64,000 bases of DNA from Candidatus Omnitrophota bacterium (GCA_043821285.1 JBDRCZ010000027.1:18988-82987); one strand, 5' to 3'. Positions 25,353 to 60,712 are shown, numbered from the stretch's first letter. Translations and numbers: made by a program. The notes: generated by a model from the sequence alone, not told the origin.

Positions 25353-25460
25353 ATGACAGGCCTAAAACACAAAATATGGTTTAAGGCAATAGCATTCATT
25401 TTAATCCAGGCGTTTTTATGCCTGGATTTGTCATTTGCCGCTGGCGGCGATTTGAAAAAT
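25353..25460 (+). other. Conserved N-terminal leader (signal-peptide-like: K/R n-region, hydrophobic IAFILIQAFLCLDL core, AxA-like SFA|AGG site)
   Basis: Near-identical leaders start the genes at 47675, 51255 and 55592. Confidence 0.8.
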
Positions 25461-28400
25461 GTAAATTCTCTGCTCGCACCGACAATAAAATTAGATGAAT
25501 TAGAAGAAGTATTTAATAAAAAATATGTTGCAGAATCTCCAGAAGAACAGATACTTACCCAGAATTTTAATATCAAATTAAGAAAAACTAAAAAAACTAC
25601 AGAACAAGGCACCGCAGTTTCGATTACAGAAGAGCAAGCGGAGTGTATTAGAGCTGCGAGAACGGGTCTGCTTAATGAGTTTACAAACAAAGTATTTAAA
25701 CGTTATTTGACAGCAGTGCAGATAAATGTTCGCGAATTTTTGCCAAACATGGCTCAGCATATGAGCCGAGCGGAGATTAATATAGATGTAGTTGTCTTGG
25801 GTAATGAGACTGCAGTACGGCTTGCCTTATACCACGGAGCACTGCATGGCATTTTAGCTGAGGAGCGGGGGACAGCAGAAACACCGGAAGAGCGCTTTTT
25901 AGAAGAGGTATTTGTTGTACAAAAAGAATTAGAATATTTAAACAGCCTTTCAGAAAAAGAACAGGATAATTATCTAAAATTTTTGAAAAACTCCTACAGA
26001 ATAAACCACGCGGCATTTTTAAAATTATATAGCCGGTATAAAGAAAAGGTAAAAGAAGCAGAGGATAAGGGAGAGGCTCCAGACTTAAGAGTAATTCTGA
26101 GCATGATTGCCAGTTATGTGAAACAAGTCTCCCGGCGTGATAATGACTTTGGTCAAATAAACTTTGATATGCGCACAAATAAGGCCAAGGATGAGGTTCG
26201 TAAGGTAGTCGAGGGGATAGAGATAGCAAAGGAAACTTCTGCTGGAGCAGAGACATCAGAAGCAGACGTTGAGCCTAACACAGCAGCAATATCAGCAGAG
26301 GAATTAGAAGAAGAGGCAAAAACGTTGATAAAACGTTTTATTGATATTGTGTTAACGGTGACAGGGATTAATTTAATAAAAAGAATATACAATTATTTAC
26401 GTGAAAAGTTGTATTTATGGAACAAATCAAGAAAGCAAAGAAAGATTGAAAGACGGAATGGGGAGCTGGAGAAAATTGATCAGGATGACCCGGATTATCA
26501 AGACACGCTGTTTAAACTCTGGAAATTACAGGGATATGACATTAAATCCCTTAGACCACTATATGCATTAGCCAGACGCGTGGATAAAAGATATGCTGCA
26601 CTGAAGCAAGAACTGGAGACAGGTAATGAGCATATGATTGCCGGGAAGAGTAGAGCATTAAAAGACACAGTAACCCTACGGGTGAATAAACTTGCAGAGA
26701 ATGATACCAGAAATAGAAGCAAATTATTAGAACAGGTACTTAATGAAAATAATTATGCGCTTTTGATTGAGGCATTAGCACTGGTACAGGCTGCATTTAA
26801 CCAGGTTAAAGAGATTAAATTATATGATGTACAGATTATTGCAGCCATTGCCGCAAATAAAGGTGATGGGCAGATTATTAGATTATTACCAGGGGAAGGA
26901 AAGACTTATGTCGGAGCGGCGTATGCCTACCTTAACACTCTTGATGGTGCGAAGGTGCACATGCATACTACTTCTGAGTATTATGCTAAACGTGATGCTG
27001 AAGATGTGCGCGGAGTGTTAGAACTTTTAGGCTTAAGCGCTGCATGTTTAGAAAAAGAGAATGAGGAGAAAAAAGAGGCATATGCGGCCGATGTTCTCTA
27101 CGGGGAGAAATCTGAATTCGGGTTTGATTACTTAAAAGACAATTTGAAATATGAGTCTAAAGAAAAAGTTATGCATGGTCTATACCGGGCAATGGTAGAT
27201 GAGGTGGATTATAATATCCAAGATGATGGACGTACGCCACTGATAATCTCAGCAAGAAGTGTGGAAAATATTTCCGAAGTACTTTATATTGCCGTGAATG
27301 ATGTAGTAGCAGGACTTATCCGGGAACAAGCGGAACAAGAGCTTGAAGAAGATGAAAGATATTATGTGCTGGAGAATTTACCCGGCGATACGACTCCTGA
27401 AAAAGCTGCGAATTATACAACTCATTCTGTTGTGTTTACTGAGACAGGATTAAAAGCATTTGAAAAGCGTCTTTTAGAAAAAGGGTTAGCGGAGTTCTCA
27501 AAAGATGATTTTTTATTTTCTAAGACCCATTATTACATTTTTAGTATGGCGGTGCAGGCGCTGCGGGCGCATAAATTATGGTGTATAGACAAAGATTATT
27601 GTATTAATGAGGATAAAAAAGTTGAGCAAGAAAAAGATAGTCAAGAAGGAGATCAAAGGGCAGATACAAAAGATAAAGAGCCTAAAAAAGGACAGGTTGT
27701 ATTGATTGATGAAAGCTCGGGCCGTCTGATGGAGGGCCGGACATTAAGCCATGGGCTGCATCAGGCAATTGAGGCTAAACACCTAAGAGAAGTAATTACA
27801 GCTGATGAAAGGACTACACTTGAAATTAAAACGATTACCCCGCGTTCAGAAGCACAGGGCTCGATTACGGTAGAGTCATTTTATAAATTATATGAAAAAT
27901 TATCTGGAATGAGCGGGACTGTGGATGAAAATGAGGCCAGGCTCTGGGGACGGCAGGGTAAAGAAGTGGTAAGGGTTCCTTCAAATACCCTGCGCCAGCT
28001 TAAGGAGCATGCGGATAGATTATATCTTACCAACAGAGAAAGATTTGCGGCAATGGCAGAGGCGGCACAAGACAAGCAGACCAGAGGACAGCCAGTTGTG
28101 CTCGGGGTATTAACTCCCGAGGATGCGGATTTATTAAGCGGTATGATAGAGGAGCTTGGCATTGAGCATGAAACATTAGATGCGCGTAATCAAAAAGATG
28201 AAGAGCGGATAATTGCGCATGCCGGAAGAAAAGGCCGGGTTACGATTGTTACGAATATCGCGGGCCGGGCAACAAATATTGTTTTAGGCGGTAAAAAAGA
28301 AATACGTATTCAAGAATTAATATCAGAAGAGAGTCTCTCAGCAGAAACAGCAGAGAAAAGATATAAAGATGAAAAGCAGGAAGTTATTGCATTAGGCGGG

Positions 28401-31400
28401 TTATGCGTTTTTATTGCTGGTAGGCAGCCGAGTTCACGCGGGGATGAACAGTTTGAGACTAGAGCCGCACGGCAAGGCCAACCAGGAGAAAGCGGGCATT
28501 TTCTTTCAGCCGATGACCCGCTATTTGAACAAACCGGCACAAATAAAAAGGTTAGGGAATTAATCGAATATTATCAGAGCGAAGAAGGTAAAGGGGTGGT
28601 TGTCACCCATGTATTTAGAAAAGTTATCCATGAGGCACAAAAGAGATTATCACAGGTGCGGTTGCATGAGAAAAAGCAAACACAAAAATACGAAGAAGTA
28701 TTAGCAAACCAGCGGGAGACCTTTTATCGGTTAAGAGACAGGTTCTTGGAGGAGCCGCAGGAAACATTGCTTGAATTTGTGGAACAGGCGATTGATCTAA
28801 TATTTAGAGATGCGGAAGATATTGAAAAACAATTAGCGCTTGATCCTGAGCTTGCAAAATATAAAACAGGAATTTTAGATGAGGTAAATGAGATAAAAAA
28901 ACAAGGAAAAGATATAAAAGATATAGCAAGAAATGAGGGGATTGTTAGAGAAGATGAATTAAGTAGACTTACAAATTCAGGTGTATTGCGTTTAATGTTA
29001 CAGCGCCAATTTATTAGAGACAAATTTGCTGTTTTTTTAAATATTGGTCTTACAAATGAACAATTAACGTTTTCTAAGGAGCAACTTAAAAATGCAGTAA
29101 CGCAGGCATTAGAACACAGGGCAATATTAGCTAGGCTGATATTGCAGATGTTAGATTTATCTTGGCAGAGACACCTTGGGGATATTGAGGAGTTAAAATG
29201 GGCAATTAACTTTCGGCCGGGTGATGAGCAGAAAAAAGCAGCAGAATTTGGCATAGATGCATTTAAAACCTTTCAGGCAATGCGGGATGAAAATTATTTG
29301 GATGTTTGCGGGGTGGTATACAAAGGCTGGAAGAGATATTTTCGTGCGAAAGCAAAAATGATAGGCCGCCAGAAAGAAGAAGATGGAGAAGTGCCAGAAG
29401 AAGTGCAGGAAAGATTAAAAGACTTAGATGAGCGATTAGGTGGTAAATGGGATTTTCTTAGCAGCCGTAGCGGTCAGGCAGCTGCTACGGGAGGAGTGAC
29501 AGTAGTTGGGTTAAGCGGGATAGTCTATGGTTATGCTGCGCCAATGATACAACAGTCACTACATGATGCTAAAATTGAGCAAATGAATGAGGTATTAGAA
29601 GCGCTTCAGGTATTAGATATAACTAAAGCAACGCAGCTAATTGAAAAATATAATTTAGAAGATACTTTTAATCTTGGCGTAAACGAAGAACAATTGCAAC
29701 AGGAAAAAGACCTTAAGATTATAGAAATAGTATTGTCATCAGATTATACAATAGAAGATGAAGAAGGCGGGCGTTATTTAAGTGTTAGCAAAACAGATGC
29801 AGAAACAGGAGAAGAGGAGCAGACAGAGAAAATTGCGCTTACCTCAGAAGACGATGAAAACCTTGTTACGCGGTTAGAAGAGATAAAAAATAATCCGTCT
29901 GAGATAGATAAAGTAGCACAGGTTATCAAGTTAATAATCGAGAAGGGATTATTAGAATCATTAGGTGGTGACGAGGCTGTGGATGCAAATACAGGTACAG
30001 CCACAGCAAATCAAGATGGACAGGAAAATGGAGCTGCTGGTGAGACCGGCGAATTATTATCTGCAGAGGGCGACGAGGTATCAGATGAGCGTGAAGGAGC
30101 AGGGCAAGCTACTGCCGGAGCCGGGGGTAAAGAAGGAGAGGTTTCTATAGATGAGGAAAAGGCAAAGATAGAAATATCGCTACAGCAGATAATAGATGAA
30201 AATGAAGAAGAGACAGTAAGGACGCTATTATTAAAGGCGTTAATTAAAGATCTTATCAGGTCAGAAAATTATACTTATGCAGTACAAGAGACAGATGAAG
30301 GAGTTTATTTAAACATAATCAAAATAGATACGGAAACAGGAGAAAAGGAGCAGATAGAGAAAATTACGATTACCGAGGAACAGAAAACGATAATCGAGAC
30401 AGTGGGAGTAGCAGAAGAGGAGAGGATAAAGGCAGAAAAAAGGGGGCCGCAAAAACCAAGTTTGTCGGATTTATTTTTATCTAGTGCTACGTATTTAGTT
30501 CTCACAATATTATGGCTATACGCTGCGTATCGGAAATACAAGCATGCTAATACAAAAAGAGAACGTTATATTGCCTGTTTAATGGGATTGTTCGGTGTGA
30601 TTTTTGTCGGGGTTGGATTATTAGGTGCTGGGCCAGCTTTTAATTGGCATGCATCACTGTTTGCGCAGGAGGTAATACATCCGGATTTATTAGAAGAACC
30701 TAAGGAAGAGGTGACAGGAGAAGAAATCGAGCTTGAAGAGGAACTGCCGGAGTTAAATTTTCTTGATGAGGTTGAAGAGCTTAAGGATGTAAGAGACTAT
30801 ATTGCAAAGAGATTTGCGGAATTAGAAGAAGATTTACAAAAAGCCATGGGCAGAATAGATGAGATAATTGAAGATGAGTTATTGGCAAAGGTTAGATATG
30901 TACAAGCAGAGATGGATTTAGAAACTGCCGGCGGTAAAGAGGAAGAGGCGCTGCAGGACCTGCGAGATGCCCAGCAGACATATGATCAACAGGTAAATGA
31001 TTTTGAAGCGGCAACGAACGCTCTGATACAGGTATTAAATACAGAGATTGGGTCAGTTGAAGAGATGGTTGAAAAATTAGATAAAAAGATTGCTAATTTT
31101 ACTGCATTGGATGAAAGGTTAGCAGAGCGGTACGAAAAGACAAAAGAGTTAATTAAAGGTTATCAACAAAAATTAGTAGATATCAGAGAGCAGATTGAGA
31201 CAAATGAGACAACACAGGGAGATTTACAAGAGAAAATAAGGCTTTATGAGCAGCTGAATAACGAGATAATTCCCAAACAATTAGCAGATTTAGATGAGAG
31301 TATTGCATTTGATCAAGCGTGTATTGATGCCCTTACAGCAGCCGAAGATAAAATGGCTGGGCTTACAGCTAACCAAGAGGCCGCACGTCAGAAATATATA

Positions 31401-34400
31401 GATAACCCAATTACCGGACAAAAAGGGTTAATTAGTAGATTTAAGGATAAATTAACAGAGCTTAATGGATGGATAACTGATATTACAACAATAGAACTGC
31501 CAAAATATGATGTTTTTATTACAAATTTTAATGCAGCATTACAGAAGTTTAATAATTGGCTTAAGGATTTTGATGCTGGGGCAGCAAAAGAACAGGCAGC
31601 AAAAACACAACTTGAACAGGCAAAGCTTAGATATGGAAATCCGAGTCCTCCAGCAAATCCTACGGATTCGAATTTAGTAAACCAAGGCTGGATACCCGCG
31701 TTATATTATGACCAATGGTGGGTGGGAGTAAAAAAAGGTGTGGCAGAAGGAGCACAGAGTAGAGCACAAGCTGAGCTGGCTAAGGCAGAGGAAGGAGTTG
31801 TTCAAGCAGAAGAATTACTGCAGAGTTTAAGGGCTGGATTAGACGAAGTGCGGAAATTACCAGACACAATTAAAGTACCAGCAACACCAACAGTAACCCC
31901 AACAATAACTCCGACAGCAACAGTGACAGTAACGCCAAGTCCGACAACAACAGCAACGCCTTTACCAACTGGAACACCGAGTCCTGCGGCAACAGTAACG
32001 CCGGTAACAAGCCCAACAGGCACACCAATAGCAACGCCATCGCCAGCACCGACGTCGGAACCAACCACAGCGCCAGCAACGCCATCGCCAGCATCGACAA
32101 CAGAGCCAGCCCCGGCAGCACAATCACAAGGTGATACAACTACTGAAACAACTACTACTGTGCAATTAAACATTGGGTCCTTAAATATTAGTTTTGCCAG
32201 AATATTTGGGCAGAGAGGAGCAAGTACTGGTTCTGCGGGATTTAGTATTGGACCGTATGGTTCAGGCGGACTTGCTTGTGTAGGGTTAAGTGTTATGGGC
32301 GTGCTAAGGACCGCGGATATACCAGATGACACAACTCCTGATACTGCTGCAACAACCAGTGATACAGACACAACAGATGCAACAGATACGACTACACCAG
32401 ATGGGACCACAGATGTATCACCGGAAGATACAGCACCAGTTATGATGGATATTTTGAATGCAGAAAAGATAGATAAAGTTGCATTCTTTGAGGCAATGGT
32501 GAAGGTTGCTGAGTTTGGGGGCGCGACGTTTATACAAAGAGGGGGAGAAGAAGATATTGTTATTGTAAAAGATGTAGATGGAACTGTGTTATATGAAAAT
32601 AGTTATAAAGAATGGATGGGACATGTTGGTAGTGGTCATGTTTTTGTAGGGGTGTCCGGGGCGAAGGCTTATCGGGAGGCTGTAACAAGAGGCGGCTATT
32701 CTGAGATAACTGAGAATAATGGGGTAAGAAAGATAACATATTCTACGGTTCAAAACGGGTACACGGAATTACTTGGTAGTGGCGCAACAGCAGAATCGCG
32801 TACTTCTCCCACAAAAAGATATATGGAGGTAAATGTACATGGGGCAACGGTGTTAGCACAGATGCTTACTGTGGGCGGGTATATGCAAAAAGATTATAAT
32901 GGCAATCCGGATATTGTAGCCGTGCATTTGTCCCGGGCAGTAGAGATTGATGGAATAACTTCGGACATCTTTTTTGTTACGCCAGTAGCAACAGCTCCTC
33001 CTGGTGACCCGGGAGATCCTTATTCAGCAGTTTATCCGGATATGACCCCGGGAATAGAGGGAACAAATAATGTGCTTAATGCCATGAAAGGGAGTTATTC
33101 ATTTGAGGTACAGGGAGACTGGACGGTTTGGACGAGTGTAGATGTAAATACAGGAGTTGTTACACAATTCCGGACACCAGCAATGCCGCAAACCACAGGG
33201 CATGATTTTCCCCAGACAGGGGGATTAGCAGGTGTAGATGCTTTACTTAATGCGATTGGGGATGAAACAACTAATCGGCATTCTTATTCATTTGAGGTGG
33301 AAGAAAACAGGATTGTTTTAACCGTGGTTAATGTTGATACCGGAGAGATAACCACTTCCTATCTTACGAAGGCTGCGGATGGAACCCCAATAGGTATTGA
33401 TATTGATGATAAAGGCGGAGTTGCGGCCCGGTCGCGGATTAAAAAGGCATTAGAAAATAGTTATGCAATAGAAATTCAAAATGTAAACGGTAAACTCCGG
33501 GCATATTGGACGGTAGTGGATGTAGATACAGGAAAGGTTATTGATGATTTTTATACTGCGGCAAGCAGTACGATTACTCCTGGTTGGGATTTTCCCTTAA
33601 CCGGCGGGAAGGCAGGTATTACAAAAATCATCGCAGCATTGAATGGCAGTTATTGTATCCTTGATTCAAATAATGGCGTGACTAAATGGTTAGTTGTAGA
33701 TGTGACAACCGGGGCAAAGCAGTATTTTTATACAGCAACTACTGGAGATAAGCCGGTTCCGGGGTATGATATCCCGGATATCGGCGGTAAGCAAGGTTTA
33801 GACTTGATTGTTACCCGGGCATTGTCTAAGCAATATGAGATTGTATTACAGACAGATAAAGAAGTAGCACAATGGAAAATTTATAATATTGCTACCGGGG
33901 AAGAAATTATCGGGCAGGGCTTTTTCACTGCGGCTAATCCGAACAGTCCTGCTGCGGCTGGTGGTATGATATATGCAGTAGATGAAGATTCGAAATATAA
34001 CTTTGATAAACAAGGGGGAAGAGAGGACTTAAAAAATGTAATCTTTGCCTTAGAACATAGTTATATATTTAAAGATTTAGGTGATGGCCGAATAGAATGG
34101 ACCGTGGTTTCAGATGAGGCAGACGGCACATACAAGGTAACGAAATTCTTTACCCGGAAGATAGATAATATTATCCCGGAATATAAATTGGATACGGTCG
34201 GGGGATTAAAGGCGATAGAGTTAATACTCCAGGCGTTAAATTCAAGTTATAAAATTGTTAAGACAGAAAATGGGGTTACGGAATGGCTGATGGTGGATGT
34301 GAAAACCGGTGAGGTAAAATGGTTTCATACTGTGGCGGTGGATAAGATTCTGCCGGGATTTGATATCCCAAAAGTTGGAGGTATTGAGGCCGTAAAAATG

Positions 34401-37400
34401 ATAACCAAAGGTTTAAATAGTGCCTATCGGATATTAGGGGAAGTTAATGGGGTGACGAACTGGGTGATTGTTGATCCGGAAGTACCCCCGGATAAGGGAG
34501 GACTAGAATATTTCTATACCGTTGCCTTAACTGAAGCAGAAACAGATGAATATCCCGAGTTTAAGGTGTCAAAGGTCGGGGGCAAAAAATTAGCCCAGCA
34601 GTGGCGAGATTATGCCTTGCCCGGTACCTATAAGATTGGCGAACGTATTGGTCCTGAAGCTCCGCTTACAAATCAAAATGTCGTGCGTTTTGACGGCGGG
34701 ATGGCAACAATAGTAAGGGTTATTGATACGTATACCGGTGCGGTTAAGCATGTATTTTTTTCGCCCTATATGACCCCGGAAGAAGTAGAAGAGCTAAAGC
34801 AAAAAGATCCGACCTTTGTTTTTGATATGACCGGCGGAAAAGAACTGTATGAGCGGCTGTATAATAGCCAGGCAATGGCATTAGGGTTTAGCTTTGGCCT
34901 AACGCGGGACGAAGGCGGGGTAACTGTGAGTCAACAGTTAATTATCTTTGACCCGGATAGCGAGGCAATATCAAATAGTCTTTATGTGCCATTTATGACG
35001 GAAGCAGAATGGAGCCAAAACCCGAGCACGCGGTTAGATATAACCGGCGGGATAAAACTGCTGCAAAGAATAAAATTAGCTATGGAGAATGCGTATAAGA
35101 TTGGTGAACAGATTACCGTAACAAAAGATGGGGTTAATTTAACACTACAGATTGTGCGGGTCTGGGACCCGCATACTGGGGAGGCGGTAAAAGACCCGCT
35201 TACCGGAGAAATGATTGACCATTTTTACATGCCGGTAATCCCGGAAGAATTACTGGATATTATTTTTGAAGGCCGTGAAGAAGAAAGAAAGGAATTTGAA
35301 GAAAGTAAAACATTAGACTTAGCCAGCGGATATAAGCTGATTGAAGAGATTATAATAAAGGAGATGTTAGAGGGGGTTTATCGCTTAGGCGAGCAGTCAA
35401 AAGAAAAGTCGCATTTAATGGACGTGTATTTGATTGACCCAGATAAACTGGACATAGATACAAAATATGTGCCGTTTCTTAGTGAAGCAGAACGTGCTCA
35501 GGTACCAGAGGATGACCTTCTGGCGCAGCTGTTAAGTAAGGTAGATTTAGTCGGCGGCTTAGGATTAAATGAGAAAGACCGGGAATTGCTTAAAGGTACC
35601 TATAGAATCGTGGGGCGCCTTAGTGAAGAGGAAGGGACTCCCGAGAAATGGGGGGGTGTTGTGCATATCTATAATCCGAAAACAGGTGAAGTTACCGAGG
35701 AATACCGGCCGTATCTTACACCAGATGAGGTAGCTTTAAATCCAGATTTTGCCATACCGAATGTTGGCGGAATAGAGTCATTAGAAAATTGGCGCAGTGG
35801 GATTATTGATGGGTATCTTTTACGGCCTACGCCAATTGAAGTAAAGGGAGAGAGAAAAAATAGTTTTCTGGTCAGGATAGATACGATTGATATTGAGACG
35901 GGTGAAAGAGATCAATTTTTTGTTTCTTATATGACACCAGAAGAATTAGAAAAAGAATTAGAATTTAAGCCGCCGTTTAGTGTTAGTTCGAGATTTCTTA
36001 GAGAGGTTAGAAATTCTTTAGACACCGGCGGATTTTATCTTAGGGACCGGGATGAAACCGATGAAGTGGTTGAGTATTTAGTTTTTGACGGGGAAGGTAA
36101 TGCTGCTCGAGAACTGCACGTTTTTGAGATTCCTGAGGAATATCAGCGTATTAAAATACCCAAAGCCACTGCGGGCAGGGGAAATTTTGAACTTTTCAAG
36201 CGCGTATTAAGAGAAGGCGGATTTGGGAAGAGAGTAAGTGAGGAACGCCTGGCCCTTTATAGTGTGGCGAATGGCCATGAGGAATTAATTGGTCATATCC
36301 CGTATATATTTGGGGATAAAGAAATAGCAAAGGGGTTTGAAAAATTAGAAATTGGTGAGACTGTGGCTTTCCCGGGTGTAGACGGGGCGCAGTTTATGTT
36401 GGATATGATTACTGGATACGGCGGGTATATAAAGAGAATTAGTGAAAACGTAGTAGAGATGGGTAATACTAATGGTGAAATAAAATATGCCCCATATACC
36501 GAAGAAGAAGGTGAGCCGGGCATGGAAATTGGCGAATGGGTGCCGATAACCGGTAAAAAGGCCGCTGAACTAATGGACTATTTGGCCACAGATAGTAATG
36601 GCGGCAGGATCACAAGAATTGATGAATATTTTTCAGAGGTTAAGGTATTTTATGAAGACCGGACAGATAGATTTGTAGTTCCGTACGTACCACTTAAGTA
36701 TCGTTCTGAGCATGAATGGGATGAATTAAAGCAGAGGATGCAGGAACAATTTGGCTTAAACGAAGAAGAGATGCAGCAAATCGAAGGGGTAATAAAGGAA
36801 CTTAAGGCAGAAGAACTTAATATTGGGGAGTATGTTTCCATATTTAGTCTGAAAAATGCTGAAACTTGGCGCCAGGTGAATGAAGAAAGCGGTTATTTTG
36901 TCCGGGATGGGGATATTGTCCGGATATATAATTTAAAGAGCGAATTAATCGGCATTGCCCCTTACCAGAATATTGCGGAATTATTGCGGCAGCAGAAACA
37001 AAAAGAAGGGGAAGAGCCGGAAGAACTAAAGGAATTAGCAGATGGAGACTGGGTGCCGATATTTACCGCGGAGCAGGCCGAGGCAATTATTAAATTAACC
37101 AGAGAAGGCGGCCGGGTAAAACGCTTAAGTGCTTATATAGTTGAGCTGCAGGATGAGTATGGGAACCACCTAATGCTCGCACCATTTGAAAACCCCAAAT
37201 TTAGAAAACCAGGAAGACTAGAACAGCCGACACTGCCGGTAGGCAGGAGTATTGGCGTGGGCGGGGCAAAACTTCCGCGCATGTACAGTGAGCCAACAAG
37301 AGATGGTGAAGGCAATTATATATATGAGGTAACAGATTTAATCGGGAATAAATGGACCGAGGTATGGAATAAAAATGCCGAGACAATAATAATAATCCGC

Positions 37401-40400
37401 GAGGGCAAAGTAACTCAAACCTTGGCATTCCTTGGCGATGCTGTAGATATACCCGCGAAAACTTTAACCATTGATGTAGATGGCAGTAAAATCCTAAAAG
37501 AATATGACCATGAGAGATCCCGAGAGAGTGGGATGCGGGTATATAAGGTTACAGAGCTGAATGATGAGGCAATGCCGGAGGATGATATTATTACTTATGA
37601 ATATTTTAATATTACCGGACAACTCGTGAAGACCGAAGGTCTCACCATGGACACAATAAATCATGAATTTTTAAAAGACGGCCAGACGGATGTTGCGAAA
37701 AGCGGAGAAAAGAGGAATAAAAAAGGCGAACTTGAAGAGACATTTGAATTTGCCTGGCGGGTTTATATGGGGGAAGATAGTGAAGGGAATAAGATTTATG
37801 ATAATGTTTATAAGGTTACGGAAGTAAATGATGAGGAGACAACAGAAGATGATGTTATTAAATATGTGCAGTATGACAGCCGGGGTGAGGCGCGTGCTAC
37901 TTATTATCTTGGTACCGAAGTAGTAAATGGAACAACAGTAGATGGTACGGTAGTCATTGACACGGGTGCGTCTACAGACATACTTTCTCCAGAGATACAG
38001 AAGAGATTAAAAGAGAGAATAAGAAAGAGAATAGTAGAAAGATACAAAAATGAGTTTGTTGATAGCTATATAGCAGAGCATGACTTGACCAGAGAAAATT
38101 TTATTAAACTATTAGATGCGAACATTGTTGAAAGGCTGAAGCTGGGGGTGGTTGATAATCCGGGATTTAGAGAAGAGTTTGAACAGGAAATTAATGCATA
38201 CTTAAAATCTGTACAACAACAAATCGAAGACGAAGTTGCGGCAACATATGATAAGACATATAAAGATAAGTCCTTAAAGCCGATTTACTATTTTAAATGG
38301 AATGAGGAAAATAAGGGGGTTGATATTTTAGAGGGATTAGGGACTAAGGGTTTTGTTATTGACTCTGGGGTGCGGGTGTTTAGTATTGAAGATAAACATG
38401 TGCCGTTTGCCTTAATTCAGGAAATAGATAATCTTGGTGATGTGACCCGGGAATTCGGTATTGTTGACGGCAAGGAACAGTTTAAGATAAGATTTGGCGA
38501 GGGATTATTTATTGTTTCACAAGAAATTTTACAGGCATTAGAAGAAACAGAAGAAAGAGGAGCAGCTTATACCGCAAAATTAGAGCAGAGTAGATTTATT
38601 GCCAAACAGCGGGTATCTGAGTCACAGGAAATACAATATGATGCCCTGCCGAATGAATGGAAAGAAAAGGTAGATAAGATTATTGCGGATTTAAAAGAAC
38701 AGGGATTTATTCCCCCTGACCCGCAGAAGCTTACCTGGATGGAAATCCGGACTATTAACCCGGAAAAACCGGATGATGTATTAGTTACTTCTTATCAGGC
38801 ATTTAGCAAAAAAGATACCCCAGTAATTAAGATTGGGGGGCAGTATTTTAAATATGAAGGAGATAAACAGGCGAAATATGAGAGTCTGATTGATATTGAG
38901 GTTGGGTATGAGGATAAACTTTTGAGTTTGCGTTTTGATTTAGATTTAGTTGATGAGAATTTTAACTGGCGGAAAAGATTAGAGGCATTAAGCTATCACA
39001 TTACCCCGCATGAAGAGGTAATCATTGACCTCTATAGTTCGTTATTGTTTAAGGATTTTAGAAATAAGACGGATGGGTTCTGGGAACAAAGAAAACACTT
39101 GATTAAAGACGGGTTCTTTAATTATGACATTGACTGGATGTTAAACAATTTAAAGGATATTGCCCGGCTAAAAGCAGAAAGAACGGAAACATTTAATTAT
39201 GACACTTATAAATACGATATTACGCTGCTGATGGCATTAGAGGTTCCCGCGGCCCCGGTAACCTACATGCATATTACTAATGATAAAGGCGAAGATGTTA
39301 TTATTGGTAAAGCAGAATTAAATGACATAGATTTTACCCGGCGCTTAATTAAATCCACGAACATGATCAGTTTTTACCGCGATGAAGCCGGGAAGAAAAA
39401 AGCCGCAGATATTCCGTATATTTCCATGCGTGATTTTAAGGGCAATGTAGGGGTGCAATTTTACTTAACTGACGAAGGACCGGTGTTAGGGATTTACTCC
39501 TGGGATTTTGATAAACACGGTATTAGTGATAAATCAATGACCGTATTTAAAACTACTGAGGGCTGGCAGCTATTAGAATCAGCATTTTATGAAGGCGTTG
39601 CGAGCATGCCGCTTAAAGGGTTAGATGAAACAGAAAGTATGGAACGGGTATTCTTTTTTAATGGGATTAGATTTGCGGAAAATATTGGGTTTGAGGTTAA
39701 TGAAAATGATTTATATATTGAACCGAGCAAGCTGCAAGAAACACTTGTCGCCGTATTAGCGGACCCGGTAAATATATTAGACAGGCATAAGATTGGGAAA
39801 AACGGTGAAGGTAAATTAGCTTTAAGATTAGACGGTTATAAATTAGATGACTATGGAAAGGCAATGGGTGATCCTAAATATGTTGCCTTTGTGCTCTACA
39901 AAAAAGGAGCGCTGATTAGTGCGACCGAGGCCGGGCCTTTACATTTTGGATTTGGTAATGAAAGTTATGTTTATTTGTACGATCCGGGTAAAGGATTTGA
40001 TTTGCCTGAAGAGCAGGATGTGCTTAAAGGACTTAATGCTGCGAAGTATAGCGAGCTTAGCTGGAATGCGCAAGTTCAGAAATGGTTAGGCTATGATATG
40101 AATAGTTGGGAAGAGAGCAATTGGGTTGCGCATGCATGGAATCCCCGGGTAGAAAGCTTTGAAAAAGCCGGGACGATTAAACCGGAAACCTGGGCACGTT
40201 ATCCAGGAAAAGAAAAGACCGGTATTTTTTACGATGTTATAGACCATCGTGCGGGTAAAGAAGGTCTTTATATGAACGCACACCTTATCTCCAGTGGTGT
40301 GCTGGTTATTGAGGCATATGAAAGAGTGGACTCTGAATTTATGCCGGATGCTTTCAATATACGCCGGGTTCCACAATTAGTTATTTATGACCCCAACTCC

Positions 40401-43400
40401 GCACATATCCAAAAGCCAATAATAAGTATAGAACAAACAAGCGGGAACTCGTTAGCAGAATTTGAGGTTTCAGAACCAATACTGGTAAAAGAAGGAGATG
40501 GATACATTTGGGTTGTGAGGATAACTGTTAATGGATATGAACCATTTGATCTATTTAAAATTGTGCAGAAAACAGAATATAGATATGTTGCCATAAACAC
40601 CGGTACCTCACACGGACCAGTACTGATTAATAATCAACACCTGTCTGCTCCAGCAGATGAGCCAGATACTAGTGCTGCTGTTGTTCCAATGTTTGTTAAT
40701 CCAGTGCCAGATTTGGCAACGTATGAAATTTGGGATTTTGAGGAACACGAAGGCCATGGGATTGATATCCCAGTCGTAGCAGGAACACCAGTATATGCAA
40801 TAGCAGACGGTGAGGTAATATTTTCTGGTGAGGATCCAAATGGTAAGAAGGGCTATGCGGTAATTTATGTAACAGAAATTCCAGATGATAAAGGACAGAT
40901 GGAAAAATATGCCGTAGTAAATGGGCATTTAGATGAACACGGGCGCATTGAAGAAGGACAGCAGATTTTTGCTGGTGATACGATTATCGGCAAATCCAAT
41001 GGAGCAAAATATCAGCCGGGAGTCACGCAAGATAGTACTGGACCACATTTACATTTGGGGATGTGGCGTATTACAGGTTTAGAACATTATTCTAATCAAG
41101 AGATTGTCAAAGCGATTTTACATTATAATAGAAAGAGTTCTATAGATCGACAAATAGTTCCAAAAAGGCGGGTAGATCCAGAAAAAGTTTTAGCAGATGC
41201 CGGGGCAGTTGATATCAAAGAACGGGAAAAAGCAGTAGCATTAGCAGCAGCGCAATCCTCACAAAAGACCCCAACACCAACTCCGCAAAGAATCGCTTAC
41301 GCATATGCCGTTAATGGTTTGCCAGTGACACTGTCAGAGTTTTATCTTCATCAACAGACTGGCGGAGCAGCTGCACAAGAAACCCTGCAACAAGCTGATT
41401 TATCTTCAGAACAGAAAAATGGTACGGATAATAGAGCATTATACTCTCAAAATAGAGCCGAAAATAAAACAGAGAATGCAAATAATGATAAGAGAAATTT
41501 TGTTATGATCATCGCGGCATTTTTAGGTTCAAGGCTTATTATGCAATGCATCTACTGGGGGATCCGGTATTTTGGTCTGCTGCCGAAGCTCAGGAAGACA
41601 GAAGAAGAAAAATTGATATACAATCCCAAAAATCCGATGGCAGAAAGAAGACGGGCAGAAAAATTACTCTGGACCAAGCCGGCCTTTAGCACGTACAGGA
41701 TTAGTCCGGAAAATGCAAATCAGGTCATCCATGAATTAAGAGAGAAACAGGCAGCAGAACAAGCAGGGCAGGCGGAACCCGAAGATACAATAGTGGTAAT
41801 AATTGAAGCTGATGACGAGACTATAATCTATAATCTTACTCCGGCGGAAGCTGATGAACTGGGACGCGCGTTATCGGGAAATGTAGTATCTGAGGAGAAG
41901 GCCGGTATAAATATAAAGATTGAAGTGGAAAACTATACCTATTCTGAAGGCCCGCTTGAGGGGAATTGTAAGGAACAGCTGCGGCACCTTTATTATTTTA
42001 TTATGGAATGGCGAAGATTAGAAAATGAGTGGGCGGAAGATGACGAGCACTTGCTTGGCGGGACAGATGAGTGGCTTAATGGTCTGGATGTGTTTTCTAA
42101 TCTGCTTTCTTTCTATGTAAGAAGAGTGGTATTTGAAGGGGAAAAAGATAGCCGGATTACAGAAGACAGCAACCATATCTTTGACCGGATGAATAAACAT
42201 CTTGGGGAACTCACAGTATTCGTACGGGAATTACTCCAGGAGTATAAAAATGCGGCAACTGATGAGGAAAGAACAGGGATTAGTGGGACAATAGGGGATG
42301 TGTTAGGAGAAAAAGGGATTAAACCAAGAAAAGCGGAGTTTATTATTCCGGAAAAAAATCTCAGAATTATTCAGCAGTTTATCCAGGACACTATAGATGG
42401 CCGGGACACTGACACTGACACTGACACTGACACTGACACTGACACTGACACTGACACTGACACTGACACTGACACTGACACTGACACTGACACTATTGTA
42501 AGAGAGATGCAAAGCATTATCGGTGAACAGTTGCTTGTAATATCAAGGGATGATACGAAGGTTGAGGTTACAAACAATAATTGGGAAAAGATTGTTGTCT
42601 TAATCAGTAATCAACTCGATGGCGTAGAGGCAGCAGATATAACTGATGTTGTCGAAAAATATAAGTTGTTCAAAAAAAGAGAAGGTTACGACCTTTTGCC
42701 TGTTTTTGCCTGGTTTCTTGACCCGATCCGGCTGCTATTCATGTTTGCGTTTTCAGGATTAGGTATTGCAATCTGGACAAATAATGATTTTATTGGCGGA
42801 CCGACAGTATTACAATTTTTGCCAGAGTTATTTTCCGCGATTTTAGCACTTAATATTTGCGGTGTGCCTTTCTGGCTGCTGGGGCTGGCTGGTGCAGTAC
42901 TTAATTATATTGCAAACAAAGTAAGTGAAAAGGCGCGTTATCCGGGAGAAAATCCGGTTATTTCTTTTTTGCCCCGGATAGTGCCAGTAAGTTGGTTGTT
43001 TGGAAAAGATGTTGTTAAGGGAAGGTATACTTTTGAGATAAAGGAAGGACGCGGATGGGATCCTACGTTCTGGAGGGTAGCATCTTATATTTTTAGAATG
43101 GTGTGTTCTTTAGGCATAACACTAGGTATATGGTTTGTGGTTATTCCTAATCTGATTACCCCGGGACATGATATAATTCAATGGCTCATCGCCGGAATAG
43201 TTTCCCTTATCGCATTGTTAGACTTTTTTGGCTTATTTTTTATTTTAGTAAATAATGCCTTATTTGAAGGGATACAGGAGGCAGTTGAATCCAATAATAC
43301 CAGTAGACAAATGCAGCAAGATCAGGGTATAGCTAATAGAATACGCGGATTGTTTATGAGTATCCTTAGGTTAATACCTATGCGTGGGCTTAGATTTCTT

Positions 43401-46400
43401 AACTCACTTAATTACACTGCCTCCCGGCCGCTTTCAATTATCTGGCAGTCGATTAATTATCATTATCTTAGGCCAACTGCTCCGGCAGGCGGCTGGTATG
43501 GGCAGATTGGCGCGATTGTATTTGACACACTGATACATATCATTTTCTATACTGCGGTTATCTTTATTGGACAGCAGGTAGTTCAACTCTGGCTGGTAGA
43601 TAGGTTTTTATTACCGATTGACTTTTTTGGGACCCTGAAATTAGCTTGTGGGACGTGGATGTTGATAACTGGCTTAGCTATATTATTATATGCCTGCCAG
43701 GAGGGGGTTGTTGCGATAATGAGTTTGTTCCGAACCTTACATTTTCGCGCGGTTGGTATTATATATTTTGTTCTAGCGCTGATTTTAGCAAATTCTGGGG
43801 TGTTATTGCAGCCATTAGTAGATGCCGGGATATTGTCAGCAGGATTAACCGCCGGGATATTCCCCGCGGTAGAGCTATTTCTTGCTAATTCTGTATTTGG
43901 TGTGACATTAGGAATGTGGCTGATTATTGGAGTATTGTTAGTTATATTCTTTCCATCAAAGGTTAAGAGTGTTGCTATACGTCTAATACGTCCAATAATA
44001 CGTTTAATACGTTCAATAATAGGTCTAAAGGAGAAAATATATAAGGATATTCATGACAAGACCGCATATCTATTTCAAGCCGGACAGACGATAATGAGCC
44101 GTGTGTTTAGCGTTGGTGTTGAGCGAGCAACCGAAGAGTTAATGAGCGGCTACCGCCGGCTTATAGAGTTAGAGGCCAAAGATATAATCCAGGGCATTGG
44201 CACAAGGGAAGAATTGAGAGCATATCTTAAGCTTCTGCATACCCGGGAACTTGAATATGAAGTTACCCTCTGGCACCCAATACAATTAGTTGTCGGTGAG
44301 AAGAAAGAAAGAGCAGGCGATGACCCGGAAACCCTTATCCCGCCGCCAGAGGTCCAGATTGTTGTACGTTCTCCCGAGGAGAAAGAACAGATTATCAAGG
44401 CCTGGAACGCAAGAAGGATAATTGTTTCCATGCTTGCGGAGGAGAATAACAGTCATGATACTGGTATTAACATGGTTGAGATGGCATTACAATTAAAACA
44501 AGCAGAATTGGACGATAAAATTATAATGTTCCTGCTAAGTAATAAGTATAGTGATCGTTCAACAGAGCCTTCCCGGGTAAATTATGCTCCAAAAACAGAA
44601 TATGGACAAAGAAACAAGTTTGCCCGGTTAATTCAGGGAGTTACCCAGATTCAGGTAGAGGCGCATTATAACTGGACGACCTTTGGCACTAAGGCGCTGG
44701 CGATGACCGGTATTGATACAAAACCTGACGAGGTTATCCGGATTGATTCTACGGTTACGCTGGATAGAAATGCTAATGCATATAATTTCCCGGCGCATAT
44801 CCGCGATGTAAAGAGAATACGCGCTTCCCGGGATTTGGCCGTGATTGTTCCTACCCGTTCTACCACGAATAACCTGGCGAGTGTTGGCCAGAGCTCGGAG
44901 TTAGTAGAAAGAGGACATGGTAAACATTTAGAAGGCGTAATGTTGCTTGGCGGCACAGGTAGTGAAATTGTCCAGACCGGCTGGGCAAACATTGCCTTAA
45001 TTCTTTACGGCTTAATGCTCTATGCCTATGCCAATCCTAATCAGCCGATATATCCGCCCAGCTCACGGATTAAAGGCTGGAATAGTAATAAAGGATGGTG
45101 GGAGGATTTTTGGAGCCGTAATTACGGGCTTATTCCGATATTCCATAATGCCACGGGTATTTCTGAAGACCTGCAATTAGCCATATCAAATATTAGCGCA
45201 TTAATTGCCTTAGGCTATAGTCCAAAGATTGGCATATCTGAAGCAGACTATTATAAATTAAGAGAGGCCTGGGTTTTGTTAGAACAGTTTACTGCTTTTG
45301 GCCGCTGGGCAAATGGGTGTATGTCCACAGACCAGAGCCAGAGAATACAAGAAGCATTATATTTTGGCTCGCCAAGTTTATATACCAAAGCAGGGGCGGC
45401 TTATCGCGGTAGATTTTTCAGCATGGCTATTCTCTTTTTATCATTTATTGTTGCACTGCCTTTTTCCGTAATCCTTGGTTTTTCATCTTGTATGGGGGTT
45501 ATCCTCTCTTTAGTTAGTCTTGGTGCAATGGCAAATCAGGTGCTTACCTTAAATGGGCTGGTAGCTTATTTAGCCAATGCTGATTTTAACCGCTATATGG
45601 GGGTAATTGGTACGATGATTGCCGGGGGAGCAATTTTCTTATGGGGACTTAATCCGGCACTGCTTATTGTAGGCATGCTCATAGGCGGATATAGTATTGG
45701 TTTTAGCCGCTGGATATACACCCGCGGCCGGGACATCATCCTTTTCCCACAGCAGCTGCTCATTCATGCAGTAGCACAAATTTATAGATTTACCCTGCGT
45801 TTTAACATATCTGCAACTGGTGGTTTTGAAGGTGTAGATATACGGGAACAGCTCGTAAAAAGACCATACGATAATTTTGTTAATATAAAATGGATATTCT
45901 GGTTATTTGGGGTAGGGGGGTATCTTTTAAATTTATATGCCCTGCATGTTAGTGCCACATTAATAAATGTTATCTTTTTATTACCGTCGCTATTATTTTT
46001 CTCGGGGTTATTAATTGGATTATTTGTAACCAGTGTACCTGTTGGCAAGAGTATTGGTGCGTGGAGTTTTTTGCCCAAGACATTAGGTTGGCTGAGCGGC
46101 TATGTTATTTTAGGTTGGTTGCTCAAATGGAGCTTATTAGGGGGTGGATGGTCGCTATTGTCCAGCGGGGGAGTATTATTGATAGCAGCTCTTTTATTGT
46201 CTTGGGTGCTCAGAGACGTGCAGTTTAAGGGAATAAAAAATATAGTTAGCCCCATACATAATTACCTATTTAGTAAAATTGAACGGATGATGCAAAAAAA
46301 GACTGTTAGAAAAGAGTACTTTGCGGGTATTTTAACAGCGGCTCAACAAAATACACTTTTTACAAATCTAATAAATGCAGGCTACATAAATGAGCAGGGT

Positions 46401-47575: not shown

Positions 47576-47674
47576 GCAATTCTAAAATTCGAAGATTAAA
47601 AAATTTGTTTATTTGATGATTTTATTTGGATTTTGTCATTTGACATTTGGAATTTAACTATATGGAGGAATATT

Positions 47675-50600
47675 ATGAACAAGTCAGTACGGACAGTTTG
47701 GTTTAAGGTAATTGTGGTTATTTTAATTAATGCCTTTCTTTGTTTGGACATTGCATGGGCGGCTGGTGGTGATTTAAAGCGGATCTTCCCCCTAATTTTT
47801 CCCATAAAGAGTCTTAATACCCACCTTGCTCCTTCCTTAGCATTGGAAAAATCTACGGAAAGAGATAGTCTTGTTAGGGTATATGGGGGGGGTAAAGGAT
47901 GGTATAATATGGCGGTAAGAACAACAGAGACGGGTGGTCATACAGAGGCGGCTAATCAAGATAAGCCTGCTGCTACAGGAAATATTCTAACTTCATACAT
48001 TATTGCTAAAAATACATTTGTAGTATTTGCTGTAGGAGGTATTGCTATCATTCTCGCGCTTATCTTCAGCGGCTGTGTTTTTTCAGATCTTGCAAACTGG
48101 CTCGATAAAAATATCCAAAAAGGACTGATAGAATTTGTATTCATGGTCAGTTTCTTTTTTGATATATTTGCTATCATTGGGCTGTTAGCAAATTTTCGGC
48201 AGGGATTTGATACGTCTTCGTGGTATTATTCTGAAAGAAAAAGCTTAATAAAGCAAAAAACTGATGTTACGAATAGGTTGAGAGGCTTAATAAAGATTAA
48301 TGAAACGGCAGAACGAAGTATGGACTGGCCTTATGAGACGGAATTTGACCCGATTATAACGAGAGAGTTTCGCACCTTAAAAGATATAAGTGAACGTCTG
48401 CGCGGTTTTATTCCGCATGTATTAGACAGGGTAAAAATCTTGGGCCGGGACATAACAAAAGAGAAAATAGAAGGGAAAATTCTCCAATTACGGATTGATA
48501 CCAATAGCCGGATAAGACCCAAGGATGATGGTACCCATGAGCTAATCTATCCTAATGACCAAAGAATGACCGCTATTGTACGCTCAATTAAGGAACATCT
48601 TAGATATAATCCGCGCGGAATTGTTATTAATGGACATTTGGGCCGGCCGCAAGAACAAATACAACAAGTTATTAGAGAAACTATCCGAGATAACCCGAAT
48701 TGTTCACGAGAAATGATAGCTTTACTAGCAAAACTGATAATTGCTGAACGAAAACGTGATCCGGAAACTCTGGAACAAGTGTTAGATAATTCTGCTTATT
48801 ATCGTAGTATATTGCCAAAAGCAATAAGAGGTGAGCTTAATGGAGCGGGGTATACCGTAATAAAAGAAAAGATGAAAGAAGATATTGAGCAGATTGTTGC
48901 TGGTAGAGAGTTGGATACTATTTATGACCGGATAGAAGAAGAATTGCAAAGAGCATTGGGAAGGGAAATAAAAATCCAGAGGGCGCCGGATAGTATTGGT
49001 AGTGATGTGCAAGCGCAGATTGACGGTTTACAAAATGAGGCAATTCTCGGACTGCCAAATGTCAGGTTTCATGAAGAAGAGGAGATTTTTGCCGTAGGAG
49101 TCATGTTAGAGGAACTATTAACAAGTTTAGACAACGTTGGATATGTGCGTAACGACACAATACTCGAGTTTGAGGATAGAGTAAAACACCTCTATGACCG
49201 GTCACGGCTGTTCTTTGCTTTAGATGAGCTCAGCGCTATTGTAAGGAAATTAATCGGTGATGTTAATGAAGAGGAATTTAGTGGAATTGTTGATGATACA
49301 AGTCGGCTTTTCGAGGCTTTAGTCAACAATCAGTATATCACTGAACAAGGCGGCATTCTAGACAGATTTGGCAGGGTAAGAATATTTTCTGATATGCAAA
49401 TAGAAGGCTATACAGATGAGCAAAAAGAAAAAATTTTTAAGATTTTGCAAAACTGCCTAAAGAGAAATATAATTCAAAAACTTCAACAGGAAGAAACACA
49501 GAAAAGACTTAGAGAGATAAACAACGTCATTAAAGAAAAGGAAGAGGCATTTAGAAAGGAATTTTTTGCCGGGGCCGAGGTTTCCATAATGGATGCTCCC
49601 GGTCCTTTACTACGCAACCATGTCTCAATCGTAGGGCCTCCACAGAAATCAAATACTGAGCATGGGCTGGGTATTTTAGTAGCGGATGAACTGCGTTCTG
49701 TTGGCAATGCCAGAGAAAATCTGCAGGTAATGATTTTTGGCGGCGGAAATGATTTAATTGAAAAATTGATTTTAGTTGAAGGTATCGTGAAGAATACCTT
49801 ACAGCCAGGGGGAATGCTGGTTTTAGGCAGTAGTGCGGAAACTGCTTTTGTGCTAGAAAGAGCGGGTCCTGATAATAGAAGAAAAATTTGTATTAATAAT
49901 ACGGATGAAGAAATTGAGGAAATTATAAAAATAGTTAAAAGAATCGAAAACATTGCTAAGGCTAAGAAGATAACTATTCGTCACCCCATAGTTATAAAAG
50001 CTAGTAAAAGATCATCGGCAGAAATACTTAGTTTACTAAGAACTATTGGAATAGAGGAAGTTGAAGTTGTTAGAAAAGAAGAATTTTCAGAAATTGCCGC
50101 TGATATTGGTGAGGATACAGACAGACTTTTTAATCATTTGATACAATATGGTTATATTACACAAATTAGAAATGAGTATGGTTTAATAACAGATAAATTT
50201 AAAGGCTTAAAAGATCATGCGGGAATGGAGATAGATTTTTTATATGCGGATAAAAAACAAGAAATATATAATATTTTAAATAGGGTAAAACTTAGGGCGT
50301 CTGATGGATGGAGAGTTAGCCAAGGTCAAGGTGATTATGCATTAGATCTAATGGATGATGAAATTAATAGAATTATTATCGATATTCGTAAGGTATTAAA
50401 CGGTAATCCCAAGGGTTTAATCGTTATGCATGGGACAGTGGGGGTAACTGTTCAGCCGTTGCTTACCGGCACAGAGAAATTGCTAATGGGGCTTGCGGAG
50501 ATTTCAGAAGAGGGAACACCGGTAGTTGTCAGCGGAGCCAGTACTACAGAAGTGGCGAGGAGGCTCGGAATAGAATTAGGTCCAAACTCTCGTATTACCC

Positions 50601-60372: not shown

Positions 60373-60712
60373 AACAGTGTACCCCCCCCTGCCGGGGACA
60401 AGCAGTTTACCGTTTACAGTGCAAAAAATACAATTATCACACAGGTGCAGCCTACAAGACTGGTTGACCTAACAGGGTGAAAGTCCCTGTGGATGTAATT
60501 GCCTATTTGACATCATAGCCATATCTGACCTTTGTCAAAGGTGACAAAGACCGAGGAAAGCTCAGAACTAAACGGAGACTATAGGTCTTCTAACAAACCT
60601 GAGGGTTGCAGCGAAAGCGAACCTTAGAATTAGCCTCGTTAGATAAAAATGGAAGCGCTAAGTCCGTCTGTGTGGGACGATAGCCAGAGGCTCTGGAGGA
60701 AGGAATAAGTTG

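Follow-up and report, generated by a model that had tools for sequence, protein, structure and literature searches.

A tandem array of 14 diverged helix-plus-three-strand domains, matching no recognised family, in a giant SecA-fused membrane protein of a Candidatus Omnitrophota bacterium

A giant membrane protein encoded by a Candidatus Omnitrophota bacterium contains a real tandem array of 14 small domains, which we confirmed at the protein level, the only level at which the repetition can be seen. The window referred to throughout is the whole 64,000-nucleotide (nt) stretch that was analysed (GCA_043821285.1 JBDRCZ010000027.1:18988-82987), and the array, hereafter array A, was delimited in it with an iterated hidden Markov model (HMM), leave-one-out scoring and a comparison of half-array profiles by hhalign. 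Only two parts of the 7,342-amino-acid host protein were recognised by Pfam, namely a SecA-like ATPase and a Peptidase_M23 domain. The gene and the array are located as follows.

25353..47381, + strand: host gene of a giant polytopic membrane protein, a single uninterrupted open reading frame (ORF) of 7,342 amino acids (ORF list and translation)
33048..35984, + strand: array A, 14 tandem units of a helix-plus-three-strand module, amino acids 2566-3544 (about 977 residues)

An HMM built from five obvious units picked up four more unaided, and iteration brought the number to 13. Each of these units was scored by an HMM of the other 12 and compared with 500 shuffles of that same unit. All 13 units scored above every one of their own shuffles (8.5-59.1 bits against shuffle maxima of 5.6-10.8); A10 was the weakest, with 8.5 versus 6.3 bits, and the other 12 reached 17.8-59.1 bits. 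The sole gap in the array is filled by a 14th, more diverged unit at amino acids 3325-3388, which matched positions 2-52 of the 61-position profile with E = 0.016 when the 13-unit HMM was run against this one sequence. A profile of units 1-8 and a separately built profile of units 9-14 aligned with an hhalign probability of 90.7% (P = 1.3e-6, 49 columns). The individual units are listed below, with leave-one-out scores given as bits versus shuffle maximum.

33048..33218, + strand: unit A1, amino acids 2566-2622, 57 residues; 37.2 versus 9.1
33219..33413, + strand: unit A2, amino acids 2623-2687, 65 residues; 20.1 versus 6.1
33414..33602, + strand: unit A3, amino acids 2688-2750, 63 residues; 47.2 versus 9.0
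33603..33782, + strand: unit A4, amino acids 2751-2810, 60 residues; 55.1 versus 9.1
33783..34013, + strand: unit A5, amino acids 2811-2887, 77 residues, insertion after strand 3; 18.8 versus 6.7
34014..34199, + strand: unit A6, amino acids 2888-2949, 62 residues; 17.8 versus 6.2
34200..34376, + strand: unit A7, amino acids 2950-3008, 59 residues, modelled singly; 59.1 versus 7.0
34377..34577, + strand: unit A8, amino acids 3009-3075, 67 residues, second in the two-unit model; 34.7 versus 9.2
34578..34832, + strand: unit A9, amino acids 3076-3160, 85 residues, first of the longer 'P-Y-M-T-P-E-E' subtype; 30.6 versus 8.8
34833..35045, + strand: unit A10, amino acids 3161-3231, 71 residues, weakest; 8.5 versus 6.3
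35046..35324, + strand: unit A11, amino acids 3232-3324, 93 residues, insertions in the strand 2-3 hairpin and after strand 3; 40.3 versus 10.8
35325..35552, + strand: unit A12, amino acids 3325-3400, 76 residues, most diverged; 13-unit HMM E = 0.016, profile positions 2-52 of 61
35553..35765, + strand: unit A13, amino acids 3401-3471, 71 residues; 21.1 versus 7.5
35766..35984, + strand: unit A14, amino acids 3472-3544, 73 residues; 21.9 versus 7.7

An earlier reading of this DNA (the original prediction) had placed a tandem array of about 14 units at 33080-36040 (amino acids 2577-3563). Fourteen units are indeed present, with ends that agree to within about 30-60 nt, and the motifs it had listed (the Trp strand, FYT, ALN-x-SY and others) all appear in the HMM consensus, GGxxxxxxxxxALxxSYxIxxxxxxGVxxWxxVDxxTGxxxxxFxTxxxxxxxP. 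Its module length of 65-90 amino acids was similar to the measured range, which is somewhat wider at 57-93. The periodicity that it had described by eye is significant in the protein sequence by both the leave-one-out and the half-array comparisons. The reading of the repeat as a chance or low-complexity artefact could appeal only to the weakness of units 10 and 12; it is refuted by the scores of the remaining 12 units, whose shuffle maxima did not exceed 10.8 bits, and by the match between the half-array profiles, and we regard its probability as negligible.

The copies of array A share 10-51% amino-acid identity, with means of 30% between neighbours and 24% between non-neighbours. Tandem Repeats Finder detected no DNA-level period near 180-280 nt in the array, where the longest direct DNA repeats were 19-22 nt. 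Because identity is so low and no unit-length DNA repeat is present, the copies must be old. The unit was found in none of the other ORFs or frames of the window.

The structure of the unit was predicted with AlphaFold2, using the 13 paralogues as the input alignment for unit A7 alone and an alignment of non-overlapping two-unit rows for a two-unit run. All five models of A7 had a predicted local distance difference test (pLDDT) score of 73-81 (best 80.8) and displayed the same pattern: a helix at residues 3-13, strands at 16-23, 26-32 and 39-45, and then an unstructured tail. The best two-unit model (pLDDT 86.3) contained the helix and three strands twice, and its predicted template modelling score (pTM) of 0.78 suggests that neighbouring units are held in a defined mutual orientation. 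The predicted fold is supported independently by the unit alignment, because its hydrophobicity pattern fits: helix columns are hydrophobic at i, i+1, i+4, i+7 and i+8, and strand columns alternate. The best-conserved columns were G2 (14 of 14 units), Y17 (13 of 14), G1 and G38 (12 of 14), and A12, D34, T37, F43 and P53 (10 of 14); they look like caps, turns, core residues and a linker proline, that is, residues of the kind that hold a fold. The original prediction had proposed a small beta-rich domain, possibly a beta-sandwich or propeller blade, and had suggested AlphaFold as a check; run here on one and on two units, AlphaFold2 instead returned a small alpha+beta module, an 11-residue helix with three antiparallel strands.

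The models also place the module in a different register. Its predicted order is GG-helix-(ALNxSY)strand 1-(W.VVDV)strand 2-TG-strand 3(FYT)-linker(P.DIP). Insertions and deletions in the alignment cluster past the FYT strand, just ahead of the next GG; array A opens with a helix (amino acid 2566); and the two-unit model places its first helix with confidence although no sheet precedes it. On these three grounds the domain starts with the GG-helix, and the boundaries drawn previously, from the Trp strand to ALNxSY, cut through the structural module. Units 9-14 are of a longer subtype. They have a P-Y/F-M/L-T-P-E-E motif past strand 3 that probably contributes an extra short helix, and a helix of this sort is seen at residues 112-117 of the two-unit model, within unit 8.

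Known families were sought at the levels of sequence, profile and structure. No Pfam family matched amino acids 2501-4100 at E <= 1, none was common to two or more of the 13 units searched singly at E <= 10, and NCBIfam gave no match on array A. The units thus map to no known Pfam repeat and, as had been anticipated, could not be assigned to Ig, cadherin or YD/RHS repeats; the suggested comparison with the Big, DUF11 and bacterial Ig-like families likewise gave no match in the whole-region, per-unit and NCBIfam searches, and the predicted fold has a helix. A sequence profile search of PDB returned only F-box/WD40 proteins, through a hairpin of 12-16 residues ('vkvWDveTGe' in FBXW7). With the one-unit and two-unit models as queries, Foldseek found nothing below E = 0.04 among 350,542 PDB chains, with poor template modelling (TM) scores, and nothing below E = 0.097 in BFVD.

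Larger collections gave a similar result. A word-indexed search of 5.8 billion proteins returned 0 matches for array A and 0 for the C-terminal membrane region. It retrieved no fused SecA relative of the host protein, only SecA proteins of normal length, the closest relatives of the SecA region being ordinary SecA of about 900 amino acids with about 32% identity. An exhaustive profile search of 1.84 billion cluster representatives yielded 24 proteins at E <= 0.001 (best 61.7 bits). We inspected 11 of these 24 weak matches, and all were unrelated beta repeats (WD40, LVIVD-like, DUF11-like and others) that matched through the W-x-V-D-x-T-G hairpin only, with the helix in none; a genuine array of even four or five units would clearly outscore the 24. 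Array A was not found in species-representative genomes, Joint Genome Institute (JGI) metagenomes or viral contigs, collections that lack this window, and the lineage is therefore unsampled in them. As judged from sequence, array A represents a new, apparently lineage-specific sequence family; diverged arrays of tandem domains in giant envelope proteins are a familiar type of feature.

The two recognised parts of the host protein flank the array. The SecA-like ATPase is complete and occupies amino acids 443-1322 (window 26679-29318), with Pfam matches to SecA_DEAD PF07517 (E = 1.7e-59), P-loop_SecA (1.3e-44), the wing/scaffold domain PF07516 SecA_SW (8.1e-18) and the preprotein-binding domain PF01043 (4.2e-15). 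The H-L-H motif is retained in the Peptidase_M23 domain as GPHLHLG, and the domain's first metal-binding motif, E-G-H-G-I-D, is one residue short of the H-x-x-x-D spacing usual in M23. The order of elements in the 3,600-residue segment that carries the array is a coiled-coil-like region with weak SMC/Rad50-type NCBIfam matches, a Pro/Thr linker, a Thr/Asp-rich linker, array A, a second array (array B), about 1,180 unannotated residues, and M23. The landmarks of this segment are as follows.

30570..30626, + strand: hydrophobic span, amino acids 1740-1758, predicted membrane entry of the 3,600-residue segment (Kyte-Doolittle 19-residue mean 2.45)
31869..32159, + strand: Pro/Thr-rich linker of 97 residues, amino acids 2173-2269, upstream of array A (read from the translation)
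40755..41069, + strand: Peptidase_M23 domain, amino acids 5135-5239, in the same span-free segment as array A (Pfam E = 9e-11; NCBIfam MepM-like E = 6.8e-6)
41499..41555, + strand: hydrophobic span, amino acids 5383-5401, predicted membrane return (Kyte-Doolittle mean 1.83)

Membrane topology was derived from a Kyte-Doolittle scan with a 19-residue window, together with domain logic. Strong hydrophobic spans were detected at amino acids 12-30, 1707-1725, 1740-1758 and 5383-5401, with about 20 more in 5781-7131, and weaker candidates at 1381-1399 and 2305-2323. Amino acids 1759-5382, which contain array A, have no strong span, and no 19-residue window within the array exceeds a mean of 0.96. 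The 14-residue loop at amino acids 1726-1739 (YRKYKHANTKRERY), directly before the span at 1740-1758, and the stretch after amino acid 5401 (RYFGLLPKLRK) are both rich in Lys and Arg and, by the positive-inside rule, would therefore be cytoplasmic. With both flanks in the cytoplasm, amino acids 1759-5382 would form a single loop outside the membrane, tethered at either end, and we infer that the segment with array A is probably extracytoplasmic. M23 enzymes act on peptidoglycan outside the cytoplasm, and this topology places the SecA ATPase inside and the M23 peptidoglycan peptidase outside, as the chemistry of both demands.

The role that we favour for array A, with confidence that is about evenly balanced, is that of a non-enzymatic extracytoplasmic structural stalk or spacer. 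On this reading, a module in which a Gly-Gly cap leads into an amphipathic helix of 11 residues and then an antiparallel sheet of three strands was duplicated in tandem to 14 copies long ago and has since diverged. The sheet would be formed by the strands SY-x-I, W-x-V-V-D and F-Y-T, with the D-x-x-T-G hairpin between strands 2 and 3 and a Pro-containing linker next. Joined by such short, conserved linkers, the 14 separately folding modules would make an elongated, fairly stiff segment. In a protein with a cytoplasmic SecA-like ATPase at its N-terminus and multiple membrane spans at its C-terminus, array A, the coiled coil, the Pro/Thr linker and the B repeats might together set the reach of the distal modules, including M23, from the cell's own membrane.

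The modules of array A carry no catalytic signature. In line with a stalk, published giant membrane proteins with SecA domains have been read as machines of the cell surface (10.1101/2023.11.21.568195; 10.64898/2026.06.07.730766). Wright and colleagues reportedly argued in 2005 that low identity between neighbouring domains of multidomain rods limits misfolding; the mean neighbour identity of about 30% in array A fits a stalk, because multidomain rods likewise show low neighbour identity. The original prediction of an extended stalk or an adhesin was a reasonable guess for a segment that is part of a very large membrane or surface protein and probably extracytoplasmic; we infer the membrane side, the rod-like shape and the spacer role alike.

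Several observations weigh against a stalk. Its rod-like shape is deduced from the tandem arrangement of small domains, and of the five two-unit models four scored poorly, with pLDDT 41-53, so that the fixed orientation between units comes from one model. No orthologue in which surface conservation could be compared was found in the searches. The hydrophobic stretch at amino acids 12-30 (window 25386-25442; Kyte-Doolittle 2.15), lying ahead of SecA and followed by SFA-AGG, is signal-peptide-like, and it clashes with a cytoplasmic SecA ATPase unless it forms something other than a normal N-in span or the start codon has been misassigned. Together with the borderline candidates at 1381-1399 and 2305-2323 it makes the parity of membrane crossings uncertain, and a hydropathy scan is a crude tool. 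Were amino acids 12-30 a true span with the N-terminus inside, the parity would flip and array A would be a cytoplasmic scaffold on the inner membrane face, as proposed for part of the Omnitrophota long-protein catalogue, in which nearly half of the long proteins are of 'inner-membrane-anchored cytoplasmic-domain' types (10.64898/2026.06.07.730766). The single Cys in the array's residues would also be in line with a cytoplasmic location. We consider such an arrangement decidedly unlikely, since the SecA ATPase would then lie outside and the M23 peptidase inside, with the positive-inside rule broken at both Lys/Arg-rich loops, and since Pro/Thr linkers are typical of exported proteins.

Besides a stalk, it is possible, though not probable, that the units are binding modules, forming an adhesin- or lectin-like multivalent array that holds the surface of a prey, host or partner cell while M23 cuts its wall. 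The array shares its probably extracytoplasmic segment with the peptidase; the binding and breakdown of other cells' walls has been proposed for giant SecA-bearing proteins from uncultivated bacteria (10.1101/2023.11.21.568195); and with so many diverged copies, avidity or varied specificities could be gained. Against binding, all conserved positions look structural, and neither a carbohydrate-binding or adhesin family nor a fold was matched. Binding is compatible with a stalk role, and the two are not separable here. We think it unlikely, as a whole, that the unit is an unseen domain family, possibly with a new minimal fold, whose copies project rigidly over tens of nanometres from a SecA-fused, self-exporting envelope machine with which a small predatory or epibiotic bacterium presses its M23 wall-cutter on a neighbour; if this were true, the modules would provide reach and recognition in an attack apparatus of a new, contact-dependent type.

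Resemblances to smaller known domains were also examined. By eye, the helix, the Y-strand and the V-D-x-T-G hairpin suggest PepSY (PF03413), a fold in which a helix packs against an antiparallel sheet of four strands. This identity is unsupported except for a weak match of the hairpin. Pfam gave no PepSY match at E <= 1 over the whole region or at E <= 10 in the 13 units, and the PepSY consensus used as a positive control scored 84.9 bits. When the unit profile was aligned by hhalign with a small PepSY alignment, whose sequences had been verified against Pfam and PDB, the probability was 15.2% (P = 0.0017) over only 25 columns, corresponding to the last two PepSY strands, with SY...W.VVD..TG paired to vYev...ev.vDa.TGkv. 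No PepSY, BLIP or BamE chain was among the best 50 PDB chains listed by Foldseek. BamE (PF04355)/BLIP-like identity is likewise unsupported, with an hhalign probability of 0.2% for BamE and no Foldseek match. The unit resembles PepSY, BLIP and BamE in its length of about 60 residues, in an N-terminal amphipathic helix followed by antiparallel strands, in the V-D-x-x-T-G hairpin and in its probable extracytoplasmic location, and PepSY further in tandem occurrence and association with peptidases; PepSY has four strands against the three predicted here, and the likeness is one of topology only.

The order of helix and antiparallel strands, the hairpin, the hhalign P value and the presence of an M23 peptidase in cis would all suit very distant PepSY-like or BLIP/BamE-like modules that regulate or inhibit the peptidase on the same polypeptide. 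We nevertheless judge this quite improbable: the hhalign match is of low probability and short, the hairpin is undiagnostic since WD40 blades match it too, the Pfam, Foldseek, BamE and strand-number results given above all disagree, and the peptidase lies about 1,600 residues downstream of the array. WD40 identity itself was ruled out, as Pfam gave no WD40 match and the units are 57-93 residues long with an 11-residue helix. A WD40 blade has about 40 residues, four strands and no helix. What WD40 shares with the unit is the local hairpin hydrophobic-W/V-D-hydrophobic-x-T-G-E, which lies behind every PDB sequence match and several of the inspected matches from the 1.84-billion search; these matches span 12-16 residues only, and the likeness is convergent local sequence, not homology.

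Returning to the stalk interpretation, array A shares with the tandem small-domain stalks (Ig-like/Big, Rib, SHIRT, G5-E, 'Periscope') the serial arrangement of small domains, the very large envelope protein, the absence of catalytic motifs and, probably, a role in projection or spacing. Those stalks are built from all-beta domains of known Pfam families, whereas the array A unit has a helix and three strands and matches none. Periscope-type arrays consist of near-identical DNA repeats that change in copy number; array A has no such repeats, and its copies are 10-51% identical in amino acids. The array also lies in a loop predicted to be membrane-anchored at both ends, in contrast to known stalks, which stand on a wall-anchored or free end.

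Giant membrane proteins bearing SecA domains occur in Omnitrophota and Actinobacteriota and have been read as surface machines that attack other cells (West-Roberts et al. 2023; 10.1101/2023.11.21.568195). The giants described there have at least 30,000 amino acids, with glycosyltransferase, methyltransferase, NUDIX or HEAT content, and their SecA domains were reported without the wing/scaffold domain (10.1101/2023.11.21.568195). A 20-protein 'SecA DEAD-like' architecture cluster has also been defined among long proteins in which internal repeats are the rule and have mostly diverged at the DNA level (Nielsen & Lui 2026; 10.64898/2026.06.07.730766). The host protein shares with the 'Archaeovorin'-like giants a SecA_DEAD and preprotein-binding part fused to a long multi-span protein, a peptidase and unannotated repeat-rich regions. 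It differs from them in having 7,342 rather than at least 30,000 amino acids, in the presence of SecA_SW PF07516 (E = 8.1e-18), and in having no glycosyltransferase, methyltransferase, NUDIX or HEAT domain according to Pfam. A helix-plus-three-strand repeat is described in neither study (10.1101/2023.11.21.568195; 10.64898/2026.06.07.730766).

Array A is a well-delimited example of the unannotated sequence that forms most of the giant proteins of uncultivated bacteria, and a handle on the architecture of those fused to SecA. On present evidence, what is new is the sequence family, not a biological principle; the array belongs to a familiar kind of structural repeat. A new family model can be seeded from its 14 paralogous copies, and the confidently predicted secondary structure and the register can guide construct design. 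If it is indeed an extracytoplasmic stalk, the array would fix the reach of a membrane-anchored peptidoglycan peptidase and so bear on cell-cell interaction.

Directly downstream of array A lies array B, and two weak echoes of the array A unit lie upstream.

35985..37205, + strand: array B, second repeat family, 5-6 units of 48-98 residues, amino acids 3545-3951 (leave-one-out)
29706..29825, + strand: weak echo of the unit, amino acids 1452-1491, in the first predicted outside loop (HMM E = 0.13)
30216..30365, + strand: weak echo of the unit, amino acids 1622-1671, ...ENYTYAVQETDEGVYLNIIKIDTETGEKE... (HMM E = 0.012)

The array B pattern is helix...GG-(R/K-rich strand)...P-Y, and several units end in G-E/D-W-V-P-I. 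In leave-one-out scoring, four of its six units beat all 500 shuffles, for the unit at amino acids 3733-3830 a single shuffle of 500 scored as high or higher, and the first unit did not pass. Its similarity to array A was not significant by hhalign (P = 0.045-0.45), so that its identification as a continuation of the array A family is unsupported, though a helix followed by strands is seen by eye in both; array B may continue the same stalk. Both echoes have a helix, a Y-x-Y strand and a D-x-E-T-G-E hairpin and lie in the loop that leads from the SecA domain to the paired membrane spans. A profile of the two matched array A with hhalign P = 0.0013 over 28 columns.

The genes beside the host gene are an ordinary bacterial chromosomal set, including those for anthranilate synthase, a histidine kinase, D-Ala-D-Ala ligase, YchF and FdhD; the G+C content of the window is about 40%, and it contains no ribosomal RNA. 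A scan of genomes with YchF gave one match, 34% identical and uninformative, in an Ignavibacteriales metagenome-assembled genome. Two further large ORFs lie downstream of the giant gene. The one at 47633-51160 encodes 1,175 amino acids, of which the sole recognisable part is a phosphoglycerate-kinase domain in mid-protein (amino acids 595-838), and the one at 55592-60343 encodes 1,583 amino acids with zero Pfam matches. Just past the latter, at 60471-60616, an Rfam match to group II intron D1-D4-4 narrowly passes the gathering score of 49 with 49.1 bits; none of the ORFs near it was recognised as a reverse transcriptase.

Two other features of the giant protein lie downstream of the arrays. 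A module of about 90 residues, matched by neither Pfam nor NCBIfam, is present in two copies at amino acids ~4040-4190 (window 37542-37832); its pattern, V-Y-K-V-T-E-L/V-N-D-E...E-D-D-I/V-I-x-Y...Y, loosely recalls YD-type repeats. Amino acids 5685-5714 (window 42405-42494), which follow the membrane return and precede the C-terminal multi-span region in a segment predicted to be cytoplasmic, form a perfect (Asp-Thr)x15 dipeptide run.

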